From Armatimonadota bacterium (GTDB lineage Bacteria > Armatimonadota > Zipacnadia > Zipacnadales > UBA5352): a DNA stretch of 12,668 bases. Positions 3 to 10,154 of the stretch are shown here, piece by piece. The stretch lies in NCBI GenBank assembly GCA_034722055.1, contig JAYENL010000071.1, positions 1 to 12,668 on the forward strand. Direction: 5' to 3'. Below the pieces are notes generated by a model that was not told the origin of the DNA, did no database searches, and saw only the letters and a program-made list of their open reading frames with translations. Position numbers and translations under genes: made by a program. The first letter of the stretch is position 1, and every line of letters begins with the position of its first letter.

Positions 3-671
3 CGCCTGTGGGCCGCGGGGATCACGCCGGCGAGTCCCGGGCTTGTGGCTTTCGGCGTGCTGGCCGCCGCGTGGATTGGGCTGACCGTAATGGGACCATG
101 GCTGGCGAGGTGGGCCCAGGCGGTGGTGCGCGACGGCCTGGTAGCCGCCGCTGAGCCGGACGGCGCGATGATGGTTGCGCGAGGGCTGGCGCTTCGCGGC
201 CTGGCGATGGCGGCCGGCGTCGGCGTGGTGATGGCGGCGGTCGCACTGGCCCTGCAGGCCCTGCAGCTTCCGCCGCGTGGCGCCTCGTCGGCGACGCCCG
301 GCGGGGCGCCCACGGCACCGGGCGGTCCTCAGGGCGGGCTGTCGGACGCGGCGGGCCGCTGGAGCCGGGGCGCGCTGATGGTGGCGCTGGCGGCGGTGAG
401 CGTGATGGTGGCGGTGCGCGCTGCGCTCATCGGCGCGGAGCGCATAGCGGCCGAGGGCCTGGACGGAGCGTGGGGGCTGGCGCGAGCCATCGGCTGGCCG
501 ATGCTGGGGCTGCTGGGTGCGGCCGCGGCCTTCGATCTGGTGGCCCGGCGCGCGAGCTGGTTCCGCGCGGCGTGGATGTCCCGCTCGGAGATGCAGCAGG
601 AGCTGCGGGAGACGGAGGGCCACCCCTTGACGCGGCAGCGCCGACGCGCCCGGAGGCGGCGACATGCGTAG
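3..671 (+). CDS. flhB: FlhB/SctU-family export gate protein, 5'-partial, C-terminally truncated (membrane domain plus linker only)
   Basis: The frame is open from base 3. RLWAAGITPASPGL aligns with the FlhB N-terminal xARExGQVPRSxEL pattern, so the start lies upstream of the window. There are four hydrophobic segments. The tail FDLV...WMSRSEMQQELRETEGHPLTRQRRR matches the FlhB linker (D...MSKQEIKDEYKxxEGDPxIKxRxR). The TAG stop at 669-671 overlaps the flhA start. Confidence 0.8.
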   Translation, partial: RLWAAGITPASPGLVAFGVLAAAWIGLTVMGPWLARWAQAVVRDGLVAAAEPDGAMMVARGLALRGLAMAAGVGVVMAAVALALQALQLPPRGASSATPGGAPTAPGGPQGGLSDAAGRWSRGALMVALAAVSVMVAVRAALIGAERIAAEGLDGAWGLARAIGWPMLGLLGAAAAFDLVARRASWFRAAWMSRSEMQQELRETEGHPLTRQRRRARRRRHA

Positions 672-2715
672 CCCACTGACCCGCGAGGCGGTTCGCTGGG
701 TGGCCTCCGCCTGGCGCCGCGGCGGCCCCGGGCTGGCCGGGGTCGTGGTGGCCGTGGCCGCGGCGCTGGCGCTGCTGATCCCCCTCCCGCCGCTGGTGGT
801 GGACCTGCTGCTGGCCCTCAGCCTGGGGGCGGCGGCCGGCGTGCTGCTGGCGGCCGTCGCCGCCCCCGAGCCCGCCCGCCTGACCGCCATGCCACCCCTG
901 ATGGTGCTCATCAGCCTGGCACGGATCGTGCTGTGCATGTGTGTGAGCCGACTGATACTCACCGCGGGCGAGGCGGGGACCCTGGTTCCGGCGCTCGGCC
1001 GGGTCATGGGCGGGGGCGACGTCCTCGCGGGGCTGGGAATGCTGGTGGTGCTGGCCGTGGTGCAGGTGGTGATGGTCACTACCGGCGTGGGGCGCATGTC
1101 CGAGGTCGCCGCGCGCTTCGCGCTGGATGCCCTCCCCGGCAAGCAGATGGGGCTGGACACCGCCGTCAGCGGCGGGCACCTCTCGGCGGCGGAGGCGCGC
1201 GGGGAGGTCCGGCGCCTGGAGCAGGAGGCGAACTTCTACGGGGCCATGGACGGTGCGGGGAGGCTGCTGCGCGGCGAGGCGGTGGCGGCCATCGTCATCG
1301 TGGCGCTGACGGCGGCGGCCGGCGTCGCGCGCGCCATGGGGAGTGGGATGGAGGCCGGCCAGGCGTGGAGCACCTACGTCCTGCTGGCCACCGGCCAGGG
1401 GCTGGTGACCATCATCCCGGCCCTGGTAAGCGGGGCGGCGGCGGCGCTGCTGGTCTCTCGGTCCGCCTCCGCCTCCTCGCTGACGCGGGAGCTGGGCGCG
1501 CAGATGCTCATCAGCCCCTGGCCGCTGGTGGCTGCCGCGGCGGCTCTGCTGGCGCTGGGGCTGCTGCCGGGCGTGGCCAAGGCGCCGACCCTGCTGGGCG
1601 GAGCAGTCCTGGCCGTGGTGGCCTGGTGGCTGATGCGCGCCGGCGGTCCAGCTCCGGAGCGTTCCCCCAGCGAGGCCCCCGGGGCCGACGAGCAGGGCGA
1701 CGAGCACGCCGGACTGGTGCTGGAGCTGGGCCTGGGGCTGCTGGACCTCGTAGAGGAGCCGGACAGCCTCATGGAGCTGCTCCCCGACCTCCGGCGGGAG
1801 GTGGGCAGGCGGCTGGGGTTCGCGATTCCACCCATAACGGTACGGGATTCGCTTGACCTTCGGGCGACGGAGTACGCCATCGTCTTCAGGGCCGGCACGC
1901 TCTCGCGCGGCACCGTGCGGCCGGGGAGGGTCCTGGCAGTGCCTCCAGGCGCAGGCGCCACACCGGACGTGGGGCAGCCGGCGGAGCTTGCCGACGGCCG
2001 CACCGGCGTGTGGGTGGAGCCCGACGAGGCCGGCGAGCTGGCGGCGGGGCGCTACTCGCTGATGTCCCCGCGAGAGGTGCTGGCCGAGAACCTGAGCATC
2101 ATCCTGCGCCGCCGCGCCGCGCAGATCTTCGATCTCGAGAGCGCGGCGGCGATGCTGCGGCGCCTGCGCGGCGACCACGCGGCTCTGATTGACGAGGCGG
2201 AGGCGGCCGGGCTGAGCGTGGGGCTGTTCCGCCGCGTCTGTGCCCGCCTGCTGTGGGCGGGAGTTCCGCTGCACGATCTGATCTCCGTGGTCGAGGGCAT
2301 CACCGAGGCCCTGCCCCAGGAGCAGGACGCCGAGCGCCTGGCGCTGGCGGTTCGACCGCGGCTGGCCGGCATGCTCTCGGATCACCTGGCGGAGGACGGC
2401 CGAGTCCGGGCGCTATCGCTGTCTCCGACGCTGGAGGAGGAGCTGGCGGAGGCGGCGCTGCGCGAGGGGGACAGGACGGTGGCGGCGCTGCCGCCGGCCC
2501 GGGCCGCGGCCTGGGTGGACCTGCTCGACCAGGCGGGCAGGGAGCACGGCTGGGGGCGTCCGCTGGCGGTGCTCACGGAGCCGCGCAGCCTTCTGCCCCT
2601 GCAGTGGCTGTGTCGCCAGGCGCAGTCGGAGCTGGTGGCGCTTCAGGCCACGGATCTGTCGCCGAGAGTACAGGTAGAGCACGTGGCGAGGCTGGAGCCC
2701 GAGCAGCTCGGATGA
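664..2715 (+). CDS. flhA: FlhA/SctV (FHIPEP family) export gate protein, divergent
   Basis: 683 aa with an N-terminal multi-TM domain. FHIPEP motifs GRMSEVAARFALDALPGKQMGLD and EANFYGAMDGA are present. The cytoplasmic domain has LELGLGLLDLV, LGFAIPPITVRD and LLWAGVPLHDL. It directly follows the flhB-like gene. Confidence 0.93.
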   Translation: MRSPLTREAVRWVASAWRRGGPGLAGVVVAVAAALALLIPLPPLVVDLLLALSLGAAAGVLLAAVAAPEPARLTAMPPLMVLISLARIVLCMCVSRLILTAGEAGTLVPALGRVMGGGDVLAGLGMLVVLAVVQVVMVTTGVGRMSEVAARFALDALPGKQMGLDTAVSGGHLSAAEARGEVRRLEQEANFYGAMDGAGRLLRGEAVAAIVIVALTAAAGVARAMGSGMEAGQAWSTYVLLATGQGLVTIIPALVSGAAAALLVSRSASASSLTRELGAQMLISPWPLVAAAAALLALGLLPGVAKAPTLLGGAVLAVVAWWLMRAGGPAPERSPSEAPGADEQGDEHAGLVLELGLGLLDLVEEPDSLMELLPDLRREVGRRLGFAIPPITVRDSLDLRATEYAIVFRAGTLSRGTVRPGRVLAVPPGAGATPDVGQPAELADGRTGVWVEPDEAGELAAGRYSLMSPREVLAENLSIILRRRAAQIFDLESAAAMLRRLRGDHAALIDEAEAAGLSVGLFRRVCARLLWAGVPLHDLISVVEGITEALPQEQDAERLALAVRPRLAGMLSDHLAEDGRVRALSLSPTLEEELAEAALREGDRTVAALPPARAAAWVDLLDQAGREHGWGRPLAVLTEPRSLLPLQWLCRQAQSELVALQATDLSPRVQVEHVARLEPEQLG

Positions 2716-2766
2716 TCCAGGCGGCGGGAAGATGTGACACAGACGCGCGCCACCGAGGTGATTCGC

Positions 2767-3528
2767 TTGGCAGCAGAGCGGTGCCCTGACGAGACGCGGC
2801 CCGTGGTCACGGCCGATCAGCGCGAGCGCCTCATTACCGAGCACGTGGGGCTGGTGAAGTACATCGTGGGCCGGGTGGCGGTGCGGCTGCCTGAGAGCGT
2901 GGAGCGGGAGGACCTGGAGAGCGCCGGCATCATGGGACTGATCAAGGCCGCCGACCGCTTCGAGCCCGGGCGGGGGGTGAAGTTCGCCACCTACGCCAGC
3001 ACCGTCATCCGCGGGCAGGTCATGGAGCTGCTGCGGTCCCGGGACTGGGCGCCGCGCAGCGTCCGCCGGCGCTACCGGGAGCTGGAGCGGACCGTGGCCA
3101 CGCTGCAGCGGCAGCTCGGCCGCCAGCCGACTGAGGAGGAGATAGGCCGGGCCATGGGCCTCAGTGACAACGAGTACCAGGAGCTGCTCTCCTCCACCGC
3201 GGTCATTGCCGTGGCCTCGCTTGAGGAGATGATGGAGGGGGAGGACGGGGCCCAGGAGTGCGACGCCGAGCCGCTCGGGGAGCCGGCCGCCTTCGGCGAG
3301 GACCCCGCCGAGATCATCGATCAGCAGGCCCTGAAGGATCTGCTAGCGCGAGCCGTGGACAACCTGCCGGAGCGCGACCGCATCGTCATCGGCCTCTACT
3401 ATCAGGATGAGCTGACCCTCCGGGAGATCGGGGAGGTGCTGGACGTGACCGAGAGCCGGGTCTGCCAGATCCACACTCAGGCCATCGCCCGGCTGCGAGC
3501 CAGCGTCCAGGAGATGCTCAATTCCTGA
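2767..3528 (+). CDS. fliA: FliA/WhiG/SigD-family RNA polymerase sigma factor (sigma28)
   Basis: Motifs LVKYIVGR..RLP..VEREDL...GIMGLIKAADRF, LRSRDWAPRSVR and region 4 LYYQDELTLREIGEVLDVTESRVCQIH. TTG at 2767 is preferred because of the strong SD GAGGTGAT at 2755-2762; the in-frame GTG at 2734 is the alternative start. Confidence 0.95.
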   Translation: MAAERCPDETRPVVTADQRERLITEHVGLVKYIVGRVAVRLPESVEREDLESAGIMGLIKAADRFEPGRGVKFATYASTVIRGQVMELLRSRDWAPRSVRRRYRELERTVATLQRQLGRQPTEEEIGRAMGLSDNEYQELLSSTAVIAVASLEEMMEGEDGAQECDAEPLGEPAAFGEDPAEIIDQQALKDLLARAVDNLPERDRIVIGLYYQDELTLREIGEVLDVTESRVCQIHTQAIARLRASVQEMLNS

Positions 3529-3533
3529 ACGCC

Positions 3534-3595
3534 GGCGGCTTCAGAGCCGTCTACTAACGCTCAGCGTTAGGTAGTGCGGGCGCCCTCGCCTGCAC
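3534..3595. repeat. Three abutting hairpins; back-to-back GTAG-type REP-like palindromes, possibly also terminating fliA
   Basis: GGCGGCT-TCAG-AGCCGTC (3534-3551), CTAACGC-TCA-GCGTTAG (3554-3570) and GTGCGGGCG-CCCT-CGCCTGCAC (3574-3595). CTAC at 3551-3554 and GTAG at 3571-3574 abut the outer hairpins. Confidence 0.5.
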
Positions 3596-3604
3596 GCCGT
3601 TTGG

Positions 3605-3766
3605 GCCCCTCGGCAGACATGCGCCCTGGGCCGGGGTGGAATCTTCGGCCGGTTCGCTGCGCTCACCGGGCTCACCGGGCGCTGCGCCCCCGGCGGCCCC
3701 TCCACCAGGCTTACCCTTACCCACATCGTGGCGAGTGGCGATTCGATGTCTGCCGTCCGGAGGGGC
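3605..3766. repeat. Nested inverted-repeat element (REPIN/MITE-like)
   Basis: Perfect 10-bp IR CGGCAGACAT (3611-3620) / ATGTCTGCCG (3746-3755), extended by GCCCCT (3605-3610) / AGGGGC (3761-3766). Inside are the hairpin CCGGT-TCGCTGCGCTC-ACCGG (3649-3669) and tandem GCTCACCGG x2 (3661-3678). Confidence 0.45.
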
Positions 3767-3860
3767 TGGCCATTGGCCGCCCAGGCCGCCGATTGCGTCA
3801 CTTCGCCGGCAGCGGGCCGACTTCGCGCGCTCCTGAGGAGCGCCCTCAGGCGGCCCCTCC

Positions 3861-4018
3861 GCGGCCAACAGCTCTCAGCAACTTGTGGCTAAAGGCTATC
3901 CACCAGGTACGCCGCGCATCTCCAACGCCCCCAAGCGCTGAGTGGGCTCGTCATGAACATGCGCGGAATTGCGCAAGTCACCAATAGTGGGCTTACTGCT
4001 CATACTCGACTGGGCCGC
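3861..4018. ncRNA. Candidate ~158-nt rod-shaped structured RNA, family unassigned (6S-like architecture possible)
   Basis: Closing stem GCGGCC (3861-3866) / GGCCGC (4013-4018), inner perfect stem CCGCGCAT (3912-3919) / ATGCGCGG (3959-3966), and further nested helices. GC is about 59% by hand count, lower than the flanks. Confidence 0.25.
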
Positions 4019-4020
4019 AG

Positions 4021-4046
4021 GCGCCCCGCTCGAAGGCGGGGCGTTT
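4021..4046 (+). terminator. GC-rich hairpin, possible intrinsic terminator
   Basis: GCGCCCCGCT-CGAA-GGCGGGGCGT gives 10 bp including two G-U pairs on the + strand. The T run after it is short. It sits just upstream of the sigma70 promoter. Confidence 0.5.
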
Positions 4047-4074
4047 GCGCGTGCGAAAGCCCGTGTGCTATAAT
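4045..4074 (+). promoter_or_regulatory. sigma70/sigmaA promoter with extended -10, probably driving lptD-secA-prfB
   Basis: TTGCGC (4045-4050), 18-nt spacer, and perfect TATAAT (4069-4074) preceded by TGn (4066-4068). This is striking in such GC-rich DNA and lies about 80 nt before the next CDS. Confidence 0.8.
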
Positions 4075-4154
4075 TCTCAGAGAGCAGGGAACGCTCCAAG
4101 AGGTGCAATCCGGCCGAAAAGGCGAGAGCGCTGAGAGGTACGCGGGAGCTGCCG

Positions 4155-5765
4155 GTGGCGGGCCTGACGGGCAGCGAGATGGTGTCGCGATGGGTCGTGC
4201 GGGCGCCGGCGCTGGCGATCGTGCTGGTGCTGGCGGCCGGCCAACAGCTTCCCGCGGAGCTGGTCACCGTCACCTTCGGCGCCGAGCGCGTCAGCGTGTA
4301 CTATGACCGCAGGCTGGTGGCCCTTGAGGGCAATGCTCGGGTGCACGGGCAGGTGGCGGAGGACGCCTCGCGGTTCGTGCGCATGACGGCCGACTACATC
4401 GAGGGGGACTTAACCACCGGCCGGTTCGAGCTGGTGGGAAACGTCCGTATCCTGACGCCCGAGGCATCCCTTTCGGGCGAGTTCGCAGTCTATAACACCG
4501 AGACCGCCAGGTACATGCTGCGCCGCGGTGCGGTCATGATGCCCGTGACGGAGGCCGACGGCGAGCCGGTCTACGGCTATGCTTACGCTGGGGACCTGAA
4601 GCGCCGCGACAGCATCATCTACCTGACCGACGCGACGCTGACCACCTGCGACCGGGCCCACCCGCACTGGGCCGCGCGGGTCAAGCGGCTCCGCTACAAC
4701 CCCGAGACGGGGCACATGACGATCGAGGACGGCTCGCTGAGCCTCTACGGGCTGGATATCCCGCTGGTGCCCAGGCTGAGCTTCAATGTCCGGGGTGGGG
4801 CTGAGGAGACCGAGGGCATCTGGCCTGTCCCGGGCTACTCCAGTCGCGACGGCCTGCGGCTGGGGTGGACGCTGCCCTGTGGCGACCCTGTGGACTACCC
4901 GCGGGGGCGGCTGAAGGTCAAGCTGACCCAGCGCCGGGCCTTCCGCGCCATGCTCTTCGCCGAGGACGACCTCGGCGGCGGCACGGCCTGGCTGCGAGCC
5001 AGCCGCAGGGAGGACATAGGGGGCGACATCGATCGGTTCACGACCATCGACCGGATGCCGGAGCTGGGCCTGGAGGGAAGCTGGGACGGCTCCGATGACA
5101 CGTGGTTGGAGGCGATCCTGTCGGTGGGGCGCTTCCATGAGTTCGACCGCCAGAGGGGCCTCCCGGACATCGATGTGACACAGAGCCGGGCGCGGCTGCA
5201 GGCGAGGCTGGTCGGCGGGCGCCAGCAGCGGGCGGAGCGCCGGGGCGACTGGTGGTGGCTGGAGGGCGTCGGCTCACTGTATGGCAGCGGCGATCACTAC
5301 AGCTACCTGGGCGCCGGCGTGGGGGCCTCGGCCAGCCCGACGAGCTGGCTGACTGGCTCCGTGGAGGCCCGGCACTATCTCACCGGGGGGACGACGCCGT
5401 TCGAGTTCGACGACATCGACATCGAGACCGAGCTCAACGGCATCGCCGACGTGCGCTTGAGCTCGCTGTGGAGCGCGGTGTTGGAGGCCCGCTACGACCT
5501 TGAGCGCGGTCTCACGCGTGACTGGGAGGTGGAGCTGCGCCGACGCGCACACTGCCTGACATGGACCGCCGGCTACCGGGACGTGGGCAACAGCTTCAGC
5601 CTGGGGCTGGAGTTCAACGGCATCTTCGGGAACGACCGCCCTCCCCGGCAGCGCAGCCTTGAGGAGGGGCCACCGGCCTACTGGAAGCACCGCCCGACGC
5701 AGGACGAGACGCCGCCCTCCGGCGGCGAGGCGCGCGAAATGCCATCATCGAGTGGAGCGAGATAG
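4155..5765 (+). CDS. lptD: LptD/OstA-like outer-membrane LPS-assembly protein, compact form
   Basis: SD GGGAG (4144-4148) precedes GTG; the alternative start is ATG 4179. Signal-peptide-like N-terminus, OstA jellyroll motifs (LEGNARV, MTADYIEGD..TG..ELVGNVRI, LSGEFAVYN), the LptD signature LTTCDRAHPHW, and amphipathic beta-strands ending RYDL...HCLTW...FSLGLEF. Confidence 0.75.
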   Translation: MAGLTGSEMVSRWVVRAPALAIVLVLAAGQQLPAELVTVTFGAERVSVYYDRRLVALEGNARVHGQVAEDASRFVRMTADYIEGDLTTGRFELVGNVRILTPEASLSGEFAVYNTETARYMLRRGAVMMPVTEADGEPVYGYAYAGDLKRRDSIIYLTDATLTTCDRAHPHWAARVKRLRYNPETGHMTIEDGSLSLYGLDIPLVPRLSFNVRGGAEETEGIWPVPGYSSRDGLRLGWTLPCGDPVDYPRGRLKVKLTQRRAFRAMLFAEDDLGGGTAWLRASRREDIGGDIDRFTTIDRMPELGLEGSWDGSDDTWLEAILSVGRFHEFDRQRGLPDIDVTQSRARLQARLVGGRQQRAERRGDWWWLEGVGSLYGSGDHYSYLGAGVGASASPTSWLTGSVEARHYLTGGTTPFEFDDIDIETELNGIADVRLSSLWSAVLEARYDLERGLTRDWEVELRRRAHCLTWTAGYRDVGNSFSLGLEFNGIFGNDRPPRQRSLEEGPPAYWKHRPTQDETPPSGGEAREMPSSSGAR

Positions 5766-5769
5766 AGCT

Positions 5770-8700
5770 GTGATACTGCCACTTCTGAGACGGATATTCA
5801 ACGCAAATGAGCGCGAGCTGGCCCGCGTGCGGCCGATCGTGGAGGAGGTCAACGCGCTGGAGCCGGAGATGGAGGCCCTCAGCGACGGTGAGCTGAAGGG
5901 CCGCGCCGACCACTTCCGGCATCGGCTGGAGGAGGGCGAGACCCTCGACGACGTCCTCCCCGAGGCCTTCGCGGTGGTGCGCGAGGGCTCCAAGCGCGTC
6001 CTGGGCATGCGGCCCTTCGACGTGCAGGTGATGGGAGCGGTGGTGCTGCACGAGGGCAAGGTCGCGGAGATGAAGACGGGCGAGGGCAAGACCCTCACCG
6101 CCACCATGCCGCTGTATCTGAACGCCCTCACCGGCCGCGGGGCGCACCTGGTCACAACCAACGACTACCTGGTGCGCTGGCAGGCGGAGTGGATGGGGAA
6201 GCTCTACGAGTTCCTGGGGCTGACCGTAGGGCACATCCAGCACGGGATGAAGTCCCAGGAGCGCCGCGCCATGTACCAGCGCGACATCACCTACGTCGAG
6301 AACTCCGAGCTGGGCTTCGACTACCTCCGCGACAACATGGCCGGCAGCCCCGAGCGGCTGGTGCTGCGCGAGCTGCACTACGCCATCATCGACGAGGTGG
6401 ACAGCATCCTCATCGACGAGGCCCGCACCCCGCTGATCATCTCCGGCACCCCGGAGCAGTCCGAGCAGTACTACGAGGAGATCGACCGCATCGTGCGCCG
6501 CCTGGAGGGCACCCGGGAGGAGCCGGAGGAGGGGCCCGATGGGCGCAAGATCGAGCCTGACGCGGACTATATGATCGACGAGAAGTTCCATCAGACGGCG
6601 CTGACCGACCGCGGGCAGCGCAAGATCGAGCGCGCCCTGGGCATCGACAACCTCGAGGACCCCGAGTACATCGAGATCAAGCACCACATCCAGAACTCGC
6701 TGAAGGCCCACGGCCTGTACACCCGCGATCACGACTACGTCATCAAGGACGGCGAGGTCGTGATCGTGGACGAGTTCACCGGGCACCTGCAGCCCGGCCG
6801 CCGCTACTCCGACGGCCTGCACCAGGCGATCGAGGCCAAGGAGGGCGTGCGCATCCAGCAGGCGAGGCAGACGGTGGCCTCCATCACCTACCAGAACTTC
6901 TTCAAGCTCTACGACAAGCTGGCCGGGATGACCGGGACCGCCAAGACGGAGGAGGACGAGTTCCGCCAGATCTACGGCATCTCGGTGGTGGTCATTCCCA
7001 CCAACGAGCCGGTTATCCGTGAGGATCACCCGGACGTGGTCTACAAGACCGAGGAGGCTAAGTTCCGGGGCATCGTGGACGAGATCATCGACTGCTACGT
7101 GCGGGAGCAGCCCGCGCTGGTGGGATCGCGCTCGGTGGAGGTCTCCGAGCGCATCAGCGCCCGGATGACGCCTGAGCGGCTGAACCTCCACGTCCTGGCG
7201 CGCATCGGCCAGTTCGAGCTGCACAACAACGACCGCGCGGTCGATGACAGACAGACCCGGGACCAGTACCTGGAGACGCTGCGCACCCCCATCCCGCAGA
7301 TCTCCCGCTCCGAGGTGGTGAATATCCTGCGGCAGCTCGGCTTCACGCCCGATCCGCTGGAGCGGGAGAACCTGGAGCGGCTTCTGCAGCTCATCGGGAC
7401 GGAGGACGGCGAGATCGCGGAGGCCGACCGGGAGCGGTACCTGCAGCGCCTGGAGCACGCCATCACCAACGGCATCCCCCACAATGTGCTCAACGCTAAG
7501 TACCACGAACGGGAGGGGCAGATCATCGCGGAGGCGGGCCGGCGCGGGGCGGTGACCATCGCCACTAACATGGCCGGCCGGGGCGTGGACATCGTCCTGG
7601 GCGGCAAGCCCGACGACGGCGAGGGCATCATCGAGGAGGAGTACGAGCGCGTCAAACAGCTCGGGGGGCTGCACATCATCGGCTCCGAGCGCCACGAGAG
7701 CCGGCGCATCGACAACCAGCTTCGCGGGCGCTCCGGCCGCCAGGGCGATCCTGGCTCCTCGCGCTTCTACGTGTCGCTGGAGGATGAGCTGATGCGGCTG
7801 TTCGCCCCGGACCGCTTCGGGATGCTCATGGGCGGGTGGCCGGAGGAGGAGGCCATCGAGGCTCGGCTGGTCTCCCGCTCCATCGAGCGGGCGCAGGAGA
7901 AGGTGGAGGCGCGGAACTTCGATATCCGCAAGAACACGCTCAAGTATGACGACGTCATGAACGTCCAGCGGGCGCTGATCTACGACCAGCGGCGGCGCGT
8001 CCTGGAGGGCGAGGACATCGGCGACGCCGTCATCGACATGGTCGAGCAGGCAGTGCAGCAGCGCGTGGACACCTACGGGGACCCGGAGCTGCCCATCCGC
8101 TGGACGGACCAGATCGTGGACGGAATGTTGAACGTGGAGCGCTCCGGCGAGGAGCTGACCGCCAAGGCGGTCGAGCAGGTGCTGCGCGCCTCGGAGGCGT
8201 CGGGCATCGAGAGCGCCCTGCCGCCCGAGGAGATGCTGGAGATGGATCCCTTCGAGCGGCGGGAGCGGATCGACGAGGTCTGCCGGGGCATGTGGCTGCG
8301 GCGCTACCACGCCGCGCTGGAGGACGCCGTGCCGGGCATGGCGCACATGGTCGCCGTCGATGAGCTGGCGGACAGCGACCAGGAGCAGCAGGCGGAGATG
8401 CTCAAGCAGCGCGCCAGGCAGCTCTACGAGCGCAAGGAGCAGTCGGTGGGCTCGGAGCTGATGCGTCAGATCGAGCGCACCTGGCTGCTGCGCATCATTG
8501 ACTCGCGGTGGATGCAGCACCTCAAGGACATGGACTTCTTGCGGGAGGGCATCCACCTGCGCGCCTACGGGCAGAAGGACCCCCTCATCGAGTACACCAA
8601 GGAGTCCCACGAGCTGTTCCAGTCGCTGCTGCAGGGCATCGCTGAGGACCTGACAAAGGCGGTGCTGCTCACCGAGGTGGCTGCCGAGCAGCAGGGCGTG

Positions 8701-8943
8701 GCGGTCCGGGGCATGGAGGCGGGGCAGGCCGAGGTGCCGGATGCCGCCGAGGCGGAGGCCAGAGCCCAGCAGGCCCAGGAGGAGGACGTGGAGACGCCCA
8801 TGACCGAGGCGGCGGAGGAGATGACCGAGAAGGGTCACACCTACGTGGCCGAGGACGAGCCGGGGCGCAACGACCCCTGCCCCTGCGGCTCCGGGAAGAA
8901 ATACAAGTACTGTTGCATGCACAAGAAAGTCTCGAGTAGCTGA
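5770..8943 (+). CDS. secA: Preprotein translocase ATPase SecA (1057 aa, two large insertions, C-terminal SEC-C zinc motif)
   Basis: MKTGEGKT Walker A, GFDYLRDNM, IIDEVDSILIDEARTPLIISG, GMTGTAKTE, ATNMAGRGVDI, ERHESRRIDNQLRGRSGRQGDPG and GRNDPCPCGSGKKYKYCC. GTG 5770 lies 4 nt after the lptD stop and gives a typical N-terminus (LLRRIFNANEREL). Confidence 0.99.
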   Translation: MILPLLRRIFNANERELARVRPIVEEVNALEPEMEALSDGELKGRADHFRHRLEEGETLDDVLPEAFAVVREGSKRVLGMRPFDVQVMGAVVLHEGKVAEMKTGEGKTLTATMPLYLNALTGRGAHLVTTNDYLVRWQAEWMGKLYEFLGLTVGHIQHGMKSQERRAMYQRDITYVENSELGFDYLRDNMAGSPERLVLRELHYAIIDEVDSILIDEARTPLIISGTPEQSEQYYEEIDRIVRRLEGTREEPEEGPDGRKIEPDADYMIDEKFHQTALTDRGQRKIERALGIDNLEDPEYIEIKHHIQNSLKAHGLYTRDHDYVIKDGEVVIVDEFTGHLQPGRRYSDGLHQAIEAKEGVRIQQARQTVASITYQNFFKLYDKLAGMTGTAKTEEDEFRQIYGISVVVIPTNEPVIREDHPDVVYKTEEAKFRGIVDEIIDCYVREQPALVGSRSVEVSERISARMTPERLNLHVLARIGQFELHNNDRAVDDRQTRDQYLETLRTPIPQISRSEVVNILRQLGFTPDPLERENLERLLQLIGTEDGEIAEADRERYLQRLEHAITNGIPHNVLNAKYHEREGQIIAEAGRRGAVTIATNMAGRGVDIVLGGKPDDGEGIIEEEYERVKQLGGLHIIGSERHESRRIDNQLRGRSGRQGDPGSSRFYVSLEDELMRLFAPDRFGMLMGGWPEEEAIEARLVSRSIERAQEKVEARNFDIRKNTLKYDDVMNVQRALIYDQRRRVLEGEDIGDAVIDMVEQAVQQRVDTYGDPELPIRWTDQIVDGMLNVERSGEELTAKAVEQVLRASEASGIESALPPEEMLEMDPFERRERIDEVCRGMWLRRYHAALEDAVPGMAHMVAVDELADSDQEQQAEMLKQRARQLYERKEQSVGSELMRQIERTWLLRIIDSRWMQHLKDMDFLREGIHLRAYGQKDPLIEYTKESHELFQSLLQGIAEDLTKAVLLTEVAAEQQGVAVRGMEAGQAEVPDAAEAEARAQQAQEEDVETPMTEAAEEMTEKGHTYVAEDEPGRNDPCPCGSGKKYKYCCMHKKVSSS

Positions 8944-9034: not shown

Positions 9035-10154
9035 GTGAGTCTGCCGGAACTTCGGGAGCAAGCCGAGAATCTAAAGAACACAGTAGAGCAAGCGTGGGAT
9101 CGTCTTTGACCTCGCCGCACGCGAGGAGAAGCTGCAGCGTCTCGTAAAGGAGACGGAGGCCCCCGGCTTCTGGGACGATCCGGACGCGGCCCAGCAGCAG
9201 ATGCAGCAGATCTCGGCGTTCCGGGACCTCATCGAGCCGTGGCGGGAGCTGCGCTCGACGGTCGATGACCTGGCGGTGCTGGCGGAGCTGGGCCTGGAGG
9301 AGCAGGACGACAGCGTCGAGCCGGAGGTCGAGGAGGGGCTGCGGGAGGCGCAAAGCAGCTTCGGGCGGCTGGAGCTGCTGGCGATGCTCTCGGGCAAGTA
9401 CGACGCCGCCGACAGCATCGTGATGATCACGGCGGGAGCTGGCGGGACCGAGGCGTGCGACTGGGCGTCGATGCTCCTTGACATGTACAAGTTCTGGGCG
9501 GAGGATCACGACTACGGCTTCGAGGTGCTCTCGGCGGTGGCCGGGGACCAGGCGGGCTACCGGAACGTGACCTTCCGGGTCACCGGGCGCCACGCCTACG
9601 GGTACCTCAAGGCCGAGGCCGGCGTGCACCGGCTGGTGCGCATCTCGCCCTTCGACTCCTCCAAGCGTAGGCACACCAGCTTCGCCTCGGTGGACGTGCT
9701 GCCGGACATGGGCGAGGATGCGGACGTGGAGATCGACCCCAACGACCTGCGGATCGACACCTACCGGTCGTCGGGCGCCGGCGGGCAGCACGTCAACAAG
9801 ACGGACTCGGCGGTGCGCATCACGCACCAGCCGACGGGGATCGTGGTGCAGTGCCAGGCCGAACGAAGTCAGCACGCCAATCGTCGTACTGCAATGAACC
9901 TGCTGCGGGCGCGTCTGCATGAGCTGCAGCGCCGGAGGCGGCAGGAGGAGGTCGATGCTCTCCGCGGCGAGCGCAAGGAGATCGACTTCGGCAGTCAGAT
10001 ACGATCCTACGTGATGCAGCCGTACCGGATGGTGAAAGACCACCGCACCGACGTTGACACGGGCGACGTGGACTCGGTGCTGCACGGCGAGCTGGATCAG
10101 TTCATCCGACCGTACTTGCTCGAGTTCGCCTCACAGAGAGGTGAGGAGCAATGA
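9035..10154 (+). CDS. prfB: Peptide chain release factor 2, programmed +1 frameshift; join(9035..9106,9108..10154), 372 aa
   Basis: SD GGAGGA (9022-9027) and GTG 9035 open 24 codons (MSLPELREQAENLKNTVEQAWDRL) ending in CTT-TGA-C at 9104-9110. The +1 frame continues DLAAREEKL...PGFWDDP into the 9201 ORF. SPF (RISPFDS) and GGQ (GAGGQHVN) motifs are present. Confidence 0.98.
9095..9110 (+). promoter_or_regulatory. prfB +1 ribosomal frameshift cassette
   Basis: TGGGAT-CGT-CTT-TGA-C: canonical CUU-UGA-C shift site with a weak SD-like element at the usual spacing. Confidence 0.95.

Follow-up and report, generated by a model that had tools for sequence, protein, structure and literature searches.

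A conserved second type III export apparatus with a truncated FlhB in an uncultured order of Armatimonadota and its proposed role in the removal of FlgM

The flagellar export system and FlgM checkpoint of Salmonella combine a FliPQR-FlhB-FlhA gate, the FliHIJ ATPase, FliM/N and FliO with the sigma factor FliA (sigma-28) and its anti-sigma factor FlgM. The system described here, a 13-gene operon that we call cluster B, resembles it in all of these components and ends in the 12,668-nt stretch of DNA analyzed in this study (the window), which is the entire contig JAYENL010000071.1 (C71) of a draft Armatimonadota genome (GCA_034722055.1; 6.14 Mb, 68% GC, 92.7% complete). Its gene order is also that usual for flagellar operons, minus the structural genes. 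Unlike the Salmonella flagellum, however, cluster B contains no rod, hook, filament or stator genes and persists where the flagellum is gone. Moreover, its FliF is a single ring domain fused to the FliG middle domain, its FlhB (FlhB*) lacks the switch domain, and its FlhA (FlhA-B) has neither the chaperone dimple nor a complete proton path.

Other reduced forms of this machinery have been reported. Salmonella flhB delta-CCD flk-null mutants, as described in PMC13344023, are similar to cluster B in that FlhB ends before the cleavable C-domain, but the laboratory mutant needs overexpression, whereas FlhB* is natural, order-wide and under purifying selection. The secretin-less type III systems of Myxococcales likewise have no secretin, needle, rod or motor. 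According to PMC3459982, they are vertically inherited, with protein translocation as the proposed function, and lie in the injectisome lineage, in which the basal clades carry sctD and sctI. In contrast, cluster B is flagellar-type, with a truncated FlhB and a linked sigma-28, and its FlhA branches apart from the four SctV sequences of a tree that contained no Myxococcales sequence. Chlamydiae, which have no flagellum, likewise keep an additional FlhA, an FliI and a short FliF, but these remnants comprise three or four genes whose products interact with the injectisome, and the paper on them describes no dedicated FliPQR/FlhB set and does not mention FlgM (PMC2830194). Lysobacter enzymogenes (PMC7688988) and Buchnera (PMC8109811) are reported to keep flagellar export genes in non-swimming cells, together with hook or basal-body parts from the cell's sole flagellar system, whereas cluster B is a separate paralogous machine beside a full flagellum. 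Literature searches, with coverage of subscription journals mostly lacking, found no account of this system. A paper on Zipacnadia refers to type III secretion as flagellar only, and its supplements may list these genes (PMC10290634).

Our results indicate that cluster B is a real, conserved, flagellum-derived second export apparatus, neither flagellum nor injectisome. On balance, and with modest confidence, we interpret it as a flagellum-free export gate that removes the anti-sigma factor FlgM and thereby switches on sigma-28 genes.

Cluster B and the separate flagellum of the same genome

Three genes in the window close cluster B:

3..671, + strand: flhB*, encoding a C-terminally truncated FlhB (PF01312, profile positions 143-238 of 335 only), with the frame open at its 5' end
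664..2715, + strand: flhA-B, encoding a divergent full-length FlhA of 683 residues (FHIPEP over its full length, 438 bits)
2734..3528, + strand: fliA-B, encoding sigma-28, the final gene of cluster B (FliA/WhiG family TIGR02479, 254 bits against a cut-off of 189.6)

As the first-pass annotation of the window had observed, all three frames are intact and tightly coupled, with an overlap of 8 nt between flhB* and flhA-B, a gap of 18 nt (GTG start at 2734) or 51 nt (TTG start at 2767) before fliA-B, and housekeeping genes (an lptD-like gene, then secA and prfB) downstream. An flhA-fliA gene pair is presumably also found in chlamydiae. FlhA-B scores 403 bits against the FlhA model TIGR01398, which is below its cut-off of 772, and 303 bits against the SctV model. 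Because the window is one whole contig, the first-pass annotation had only the operon tail at hand, and the fliP, fliQ and fliR genes that it proposed to look for upstream were indeed found. Contig C172 ends in 127 nt that form an exact overlap with the beginning of the window. It contributes fliQ, fliR and the first part of flhB*, bringing FlhB* to about 240 residues in total. Contig C227 encodes fliFG*-fliH-I-J-M*-N-O-P, in which fliFG* is a FliF/FliG mini-fusion and fliM is divergent. The two contigs are joined solely through a repeat (96% over 137 nt, no exact overlap), and the gene order C227-C172-C71 was found contiguous in relatives. Copies of an intergenic repeat family lie on many contigs of the genome (window 3529-4154, L004:5890-6232 and L001:1-280, for instance); the family lies between fliP and fliQ, where it is the probable cause of the break in the assembly.

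The operon reads fliFG*, fliH-I-J-M-N-O-P-Q-R, flhB*, flhA and fliA, and eight of its export genes were matched by Pfam (FliP, FliQ, FliR, FlhA, FlhB, FliH, FliI and FliJ). In the five genomes searched for a secretin (SctC), the secretin genes are on other contigs than the located cluster B pieces. No extra conserved SctD- or SctF-like gene was seen inside the clusters; no profile search was aimed at these two. Cluster B includes neither a motor nor an outer-membrane pore, and on the features tested it is excluded from membership in both flagella and injectisomes.

The same genome encodes a separate, complete flagellar system (system A) on contigs C215, C115 and C252, with a full-length FlhB (375 residues), rod, hook, motor, FliK, FlgN and flagellin genes, and its own FliA and FlgM. 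The expectation that this genome would have no flagellum was therefore wrong. The absence of flhF and flhG, taken by the first-pass annotation as a mark of the locus, proved not to be diagnostic and was rejected as a marker of cluster B, since a search of the whole genome gave no orthologue of either and both are missing from the flagellar operon too. Cluster B is not the only gate of the genome, as the flagellum has one of its own. The idea of an flhB split in two was rejected, because neither this genome nor the relatives searched in the order yielded a gene for the FlhB C-domain by itself; stand-alone matches to this domain were limited to genomes outside the order. The system A operon (L002:7444-12651, on C215) has the unusual order fliQ, sigma-region-4 protein, flhA, fliR, flhB and fliA, with fliG and fliM on another contig. 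The FliA of system A is a duplicate, within family f1, that is sister to FliA-B.

Conservation, ancestry and selection

In a reference set of 67 genomes of one uncultured Armatimonadota order (families f1-f7), cluster B is present in 47. A FliFG* profile, built from 13 of its 45 matching genomes, gave full-type matches in those 45, and G006 and G034 were recognized via other cluster B genes. The profile found no match in f6, f7, genera g11 and g121, or genomes G007, G029 and G207. All 13 genes occur in the same order in 12 loci of families f1 and f5, and 12 of the 13 in two further loci; the operon is in three pieces in family f4 and only partial, on short contigs, in f2 and f3. Five f5 loci (L046:4491-5333 (-), L047, L048, L049 and L051) have a conserved lipoprotein-like gene (about 280 residues, no Pfam match) between fliP and fliQ, in the opposite orientation. 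Across 161 genomes sampled evenly from the phylum, the C-truncated FlhB was confined to this order, except for one contig-end fragment.

Further phylogenetic analysis placed the FlhA-B sequences in a single clade (19 rows, Shimodaira-Hasegawa (SH) support 100), apart from flagellar FlhA and the four SctV sequences, in a tree of 52 rows from which most near-identical Smithella rows were excluded. Together with the higher score on FlhA than on SctV models, this answers the tree comparison that had been proposed for the locus. In the FliP tree (26 of 35 rows used), cluster B is sister to the order's own flagellar FliP with support 89, which fits a birth of cluster B by duplication in the order's ancestor and neither shows nor rejects it; the FlhA and FliI trees leave the origin unsettled.

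The ratio of non-synonymous to synonymous substitution rates (dN/dS) of the cluster B genes is 0.04-0.54 (Nei-Gojobori, 10 genome pairs, with dS partly saturated in the distant ones), and that of the neighboring lptD-like and secA genes, taken for comparison, is 0.13-0.44. Constraint is tightest on FliI, FliP and FliA, and the values for FliP and FliI (0.08-0.19) are the lowest among the export proteins. These data bear directly on the idea that cluster B is a copy of the flagellar operon in the course of decay, which its long branches, its low family scores and the lineages without a match would suit, as would G036, where fliP is split over two frames (L046:3600-4453; seen in this genome alone, and either an assembly error or a local break). 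However, cluster B occurs in 47 of 67 genomes with dN/dS far below 1, the truncation point of FlhB is identical in 19 of 19 sequences, and the operon was retained after flagellum loss in several lineages. Decay is largely refuted by the selection data and is hardly credible. The first-pass view of a reduced gate kept for a non-flagellar job under its own sigma-28, rather than one subject to neutral drift with frameshifted orthologues, is in turn borne out by these ratios, by the separate clade and by genomes that carry cluster B without rod, hook, filament or FliG_C genes.

The gate, FlgM and the proposed mechanism

FlhB* ends before the NPTH site, at Salmonella-equivalent residues about 250-256 and 16-22 residues past the EGDP-equivalent, in all 19 aligned orthologues. 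It retains the transmembrane domain, the N-terminal peptide and the charged linker helix. The NPTH cleavage site is missing, as is the cytoplasmic switch domain. The linker helix of FlhB threads the FlhA channel, according to a 2026 preprint. A frameshift artefact was rejected as the cause of the short FlhB*, since the 19 sequences share an end point and about 60 of the top-ranked 50%-identity clusters measure 220-253 residues. In flk-null Salmonella, an FlhB stop at 258 or a deletion of 270-383 is reported to send FlgM-Bla into the periplasm without rod, hook or FliK, with early substrates blocked (Chevance et al. 2026, PMC13344023). By analogy, we regard FlhB* as the natural counterpart of this late-secretion allele.

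FliFG* begins with a hydrophobic segment, which is followed by one ring-building domain, a transmembrane helix and a tail that resembles the FliG middle domain. Profile searches matched PF01514 in part only and, weakly, FliG_M (E 0.01). The ring domain matches FliF RBM2 (model predicted local distance difference test (pLDDT) 81; Foldseek E ~1e-6 to MS-ring chains including an RBM2-inner ring), and structural modeling predicts a mini FliF ring (RBM2 alone) fused to the FliG middle domain. Neither the FliF C-terminal ring domain needed for a full MS ring nor the FliG torque domain is in FliFG*, which is the gate-cradling part without the rod-holding or stator-meeting parts. The Walker A/B and ERGRE motifs of FliI are retained in 14 of 14 sequences.

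FlhA-B is altered, as the first-pass annotation had also suspected, in a selective way. R85, R94, R147, R154, D158, D199 and R270 are invariant in 19 of 19 sequences, the changes K203R (19/19) and D208E (16/19) are conservative, and the inner charge ring and the R85-D/E208 pair are retained. D208E is functional in Salmonella and the charge at 249 is dispensable there (Hara 2011). The chaperone dimple has lost F459 and T490 in all 19 sequences and, as aligned, D456 in all 19; the flagellar FlhA of the phylum retains F459 and T490 in 18 of 18. These dimple residues are reported to dock FlgN, FliS and FliT (PMC9114704).

FlgM is encoded by 58 of the 67 order genomes (PF04316 above cut-off). Among the 23 without a rod/hook match, full-length FlgM is present in 15 of 15 with cluster B (B-only genomes) versus 0 of 8 gate-less ones. 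Three of the latter (G030, G213 and G214) keep fliA without flgM, as expected if an unexported FlgM is a permanent brake. The 15 B-only genomes have no PF00460 (rod/hook) match, and a flagellin search in seven of the 15 gave no match; in four B-only genomes per search (92-96% complete), FliE, FliG_C, the rod C-domain, FliK and FlgN likewise went without a match. FlgM is therefore the sole known flagellar substrate found in these subsets. It measures 97-101 residues with an invariant start M-x-I-D-P in eight B-only genomes. The orphan flgM is placed away from flagellar genes, with an rseB-like gene upstream in 24 of 33 loci, and a sigma-28 promoter, T(A/C)AAG-N14/15-GCCGATA, precedes it in 32 of the best 33 loci. 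With this canonical promoter and a family score above cut-off, FliA-B is a typical sigma-28 and not the altered one that had been supposed. At one orphan flgM (L129:229-1677), an ECF (extracytoplasmic function) sigma gene, an anti-sigma-like gene and the rseB-like gene come before it, a neighborhood that may link envelope stress to the sigma-28 switch.

Modeling of FliA-B with the orphan FlgM (encoded on C239) gave a complex score of 0.81 against 0.00 for the best control, the mark for this score being reached by 116 of 157 solved pairs and 2 of 215 mismatched pairs; contact agreement among runs was at least 75% and partner pLDDT at least 66. The C-terminal half of FlgM is predicted to contact FliA-B, and residues 1-50 make no confident contact. 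FlgM is accordingly predicted to bind FliA-B, and the pass may come from likeness, because the pair resembles the textbook complex. FliA itself is reported to be the export chaperone of FlgM (PMC8527033), a role that would account for the adjacency of flhA and fliA, which is kept also in split operons.

We propose that loss of the FlhB C-domain would lock the gate in late-substrate mode and that FliA-B would deliver FlgM as its export chaperone. FlgM would then be exported to the periplasm, freeing the co-encoded FliA independently of flagellum assembly, and would be degraded there. Export would be slow and mostly ATPase-driven, and transcription of flgM from its sigma-28 promoter would reset the switch.

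Several observations weigh against this mechanism. The main evidence against normal proton-driven export is the loss of proton-path residues: Q254 is hydrophobic and D249 non-acidic in 19 of 19 FlhA-B sequences, N137 is variable, and T246 and S261, also of the proton path, are lost. The first three are reported as essential for proton flow (bioRxiv 10.64898/2026.06.13.732081). The loss of Q254 suggests that the gate has lost normal proton coupling, and export may therefore be slow or nil. In addition, the FlhB lariat loop is degenerate, the FliP methionine gasket is changed, and the truncation effect in Salmonella required Flk loss and overexpression (PMC13344023). The co-occurrence with FlgM covers about six B-only and three gate-less lineages, with some genomes only 67-89% complete, and is therefore a pattern and not a statistical test. 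The flagellated f6 genomes, which have one fliA, encode FlgM in 7 of 7 cases and have no FliFG* match; the three f6 flgM loci examined are of the orphan type beside rseB, and three f6 FliAs group with the order's other FliAs. The pair can thus serve an ordinary flagellum and is not exclusive to cluster B. Finally, there may be substrates other than FlgM that went unrecognized.

The degenerate proton path also allows a reading in which the gate no longer translocates. As a scaffold or sensor in the membrane, it would then control sigma-28 without export, either by binding FlgM or FliA or by handing FlgM to a protease. The loss of Q254, D249, T246 and S261 and the degenerate lariat loop would suit such a role, but the pore-lining and charge-ring residues of FlhA-B are invariant or conservatively changed, FliP and FliI are the most constrained export proteins, and the ATPase motifs are intact, which makes a non-exporting gate improbable. 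Even less can be said for a membrane-building role. FliOPQR-FlhBA reportedly forms a 'CORE' that has been proposed to seed nanotubes, and cluster B has every CORE gene and no axial genes. A CORE seeding nanotubes or another membrane structure, however, would leave the FlhB truncation, the retained ATPase and C-ring parts, the fliA linkage and the flgM pattern unexplained. The nanotube role raised in the first-pass annotation found no support in our data, and we consider it very unlikely.

Sigma-28 output, upstream control and implications

In five B-only genomes the sigma-28 motif had 47 matches versus 17 controls, compared with 14 versus 14 in four gate-less genomes. Downstream genes were listed for 30 loci among the 47 matches, some of which are due to chance. 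Among those listed, the motif is followed by flgM, a second flgM, HD_5 proteins (three genomes), a histidine kinase, a response regulator and a PAS protein, and also by a polysaccharide export protein, a sugar transferase, a Tad-type gene and a sigma-54 fragment. This suggests, as a lead only, a sigma-28 output of signaling and surface functions. Family f5 has a single FliA in each of 16 genomes, which is the cluster B gene in all nine that could be placed, and cluster B may therefore also influence flagellin expression in flagellated members. Two divergent sigma-28 promoters were seen at L175:1-1235 (G025:C10) and at G035:C37:22467-23329; in G025, which has no flagellum, they face the second flgM and a sigma-54-like gene. 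In G040 (L051:13607-16281 and L162), the motif precedes histidine kinase, response regulator and GAF-HD genes on the same strand just upstream of cluster B, which makes a feedback loop possible.

The output genes bear on a further alternative, that cluster B is a general periplasmic translocator of unrecognized substrates such as envelope or surface proteins or sigma-28 regulon products, FlgM export being a side effect or a coupling device. Consistent with this, the cell bears a considerable cost in maintaining FliO, remnants of the C-ring and an entire ATPase complex, the cytoplasmic domain of FlhA is remodeled and not deleted, and the leftover flagellar export genes of Lysobacter are reported to export non-flagellar proteins (PMC7688988). 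However, among the loci listed, no conserved substrate or chaperone gene was seen inside the clusters, and the flanks are housekeeping genes that differ by family; the genes after sigma-28 motifs in B-only genomes, among the matches listed, are mostly for signaling, polysaccharide and pilus functions. We therefore consider a general translocator rather unlikely.

Control upstream of the operon was also surveyed. Directly upstream of fliFG*, sigma-28 promoters were found in 0 of 18 loci and a sigma-54-like promoter gave one weak match. Family f1 has a conserved structured RNA of about 230 nt directly upstream of fliFG* and downstream of a sigma-70-type promoter (L037:6800-7024 (+)); in the genome of the window it is at L241 (C14:98-283, -), continuing at L004:1-40. 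DNA search found it in 15 of 18 f1 genomes, one match being a short hit elsewhere, and G012 has it at both fliFG* copies. The promoter precedes it in 14 of 14 copies, its folding z is -2.2 to -4.9, its 3' end is a terminator with compensatory changes, and its conserved loops GGCCCG and CGGGCU could kiss. No Rfam family matches it. Antiterminator pairing was considered and not established, being possible but variable (-9 to -22 kcal/mol). The RNA may be a riboswitch-like leader or a stand-alone RNA.

Elsewhere in the window, secA (5659-8943) has an apparent insertion, at about residues 437-602, that separates its DEAD domain from its P-loop domain. The prfB gene (9201-10154) is matched from profile position 29 onward and therefore probably starts further upstream in a different frame; a programmed frameshift is usual in prfB.

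We return to the export of FlgM through a dedicated gate. More broadly, and only tentatively, cluster B could represent a third use of type III machinery, as a dedicated transmembrane signaling device with a late-locked gate and an anti-sigma factor as its sole cargo. Here the secretion event alone would turn on a lifestyle program of HD-domain and two-component signaling, polysaccharide and pilus genes, and in one family a new structured leader RNA may control it. If this is true, the flagellar checkpoint, in which FlgM export frees sigma-28, would be detachable and kept as a stand-alone signaling module. Cluster B is a natural test of the 2026 model in which removal of the FlhB C-domain flips the secretion switch. 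It is also a minimal type III gate that occurs in nature, with a single ring domain, a degenerate proton path and neither switch domain nor dimple. As such it is useful for the question of whether ATP alone drives export, and it is an independent example of the secretin-less stage proposed between the flagellum and the injectisome.

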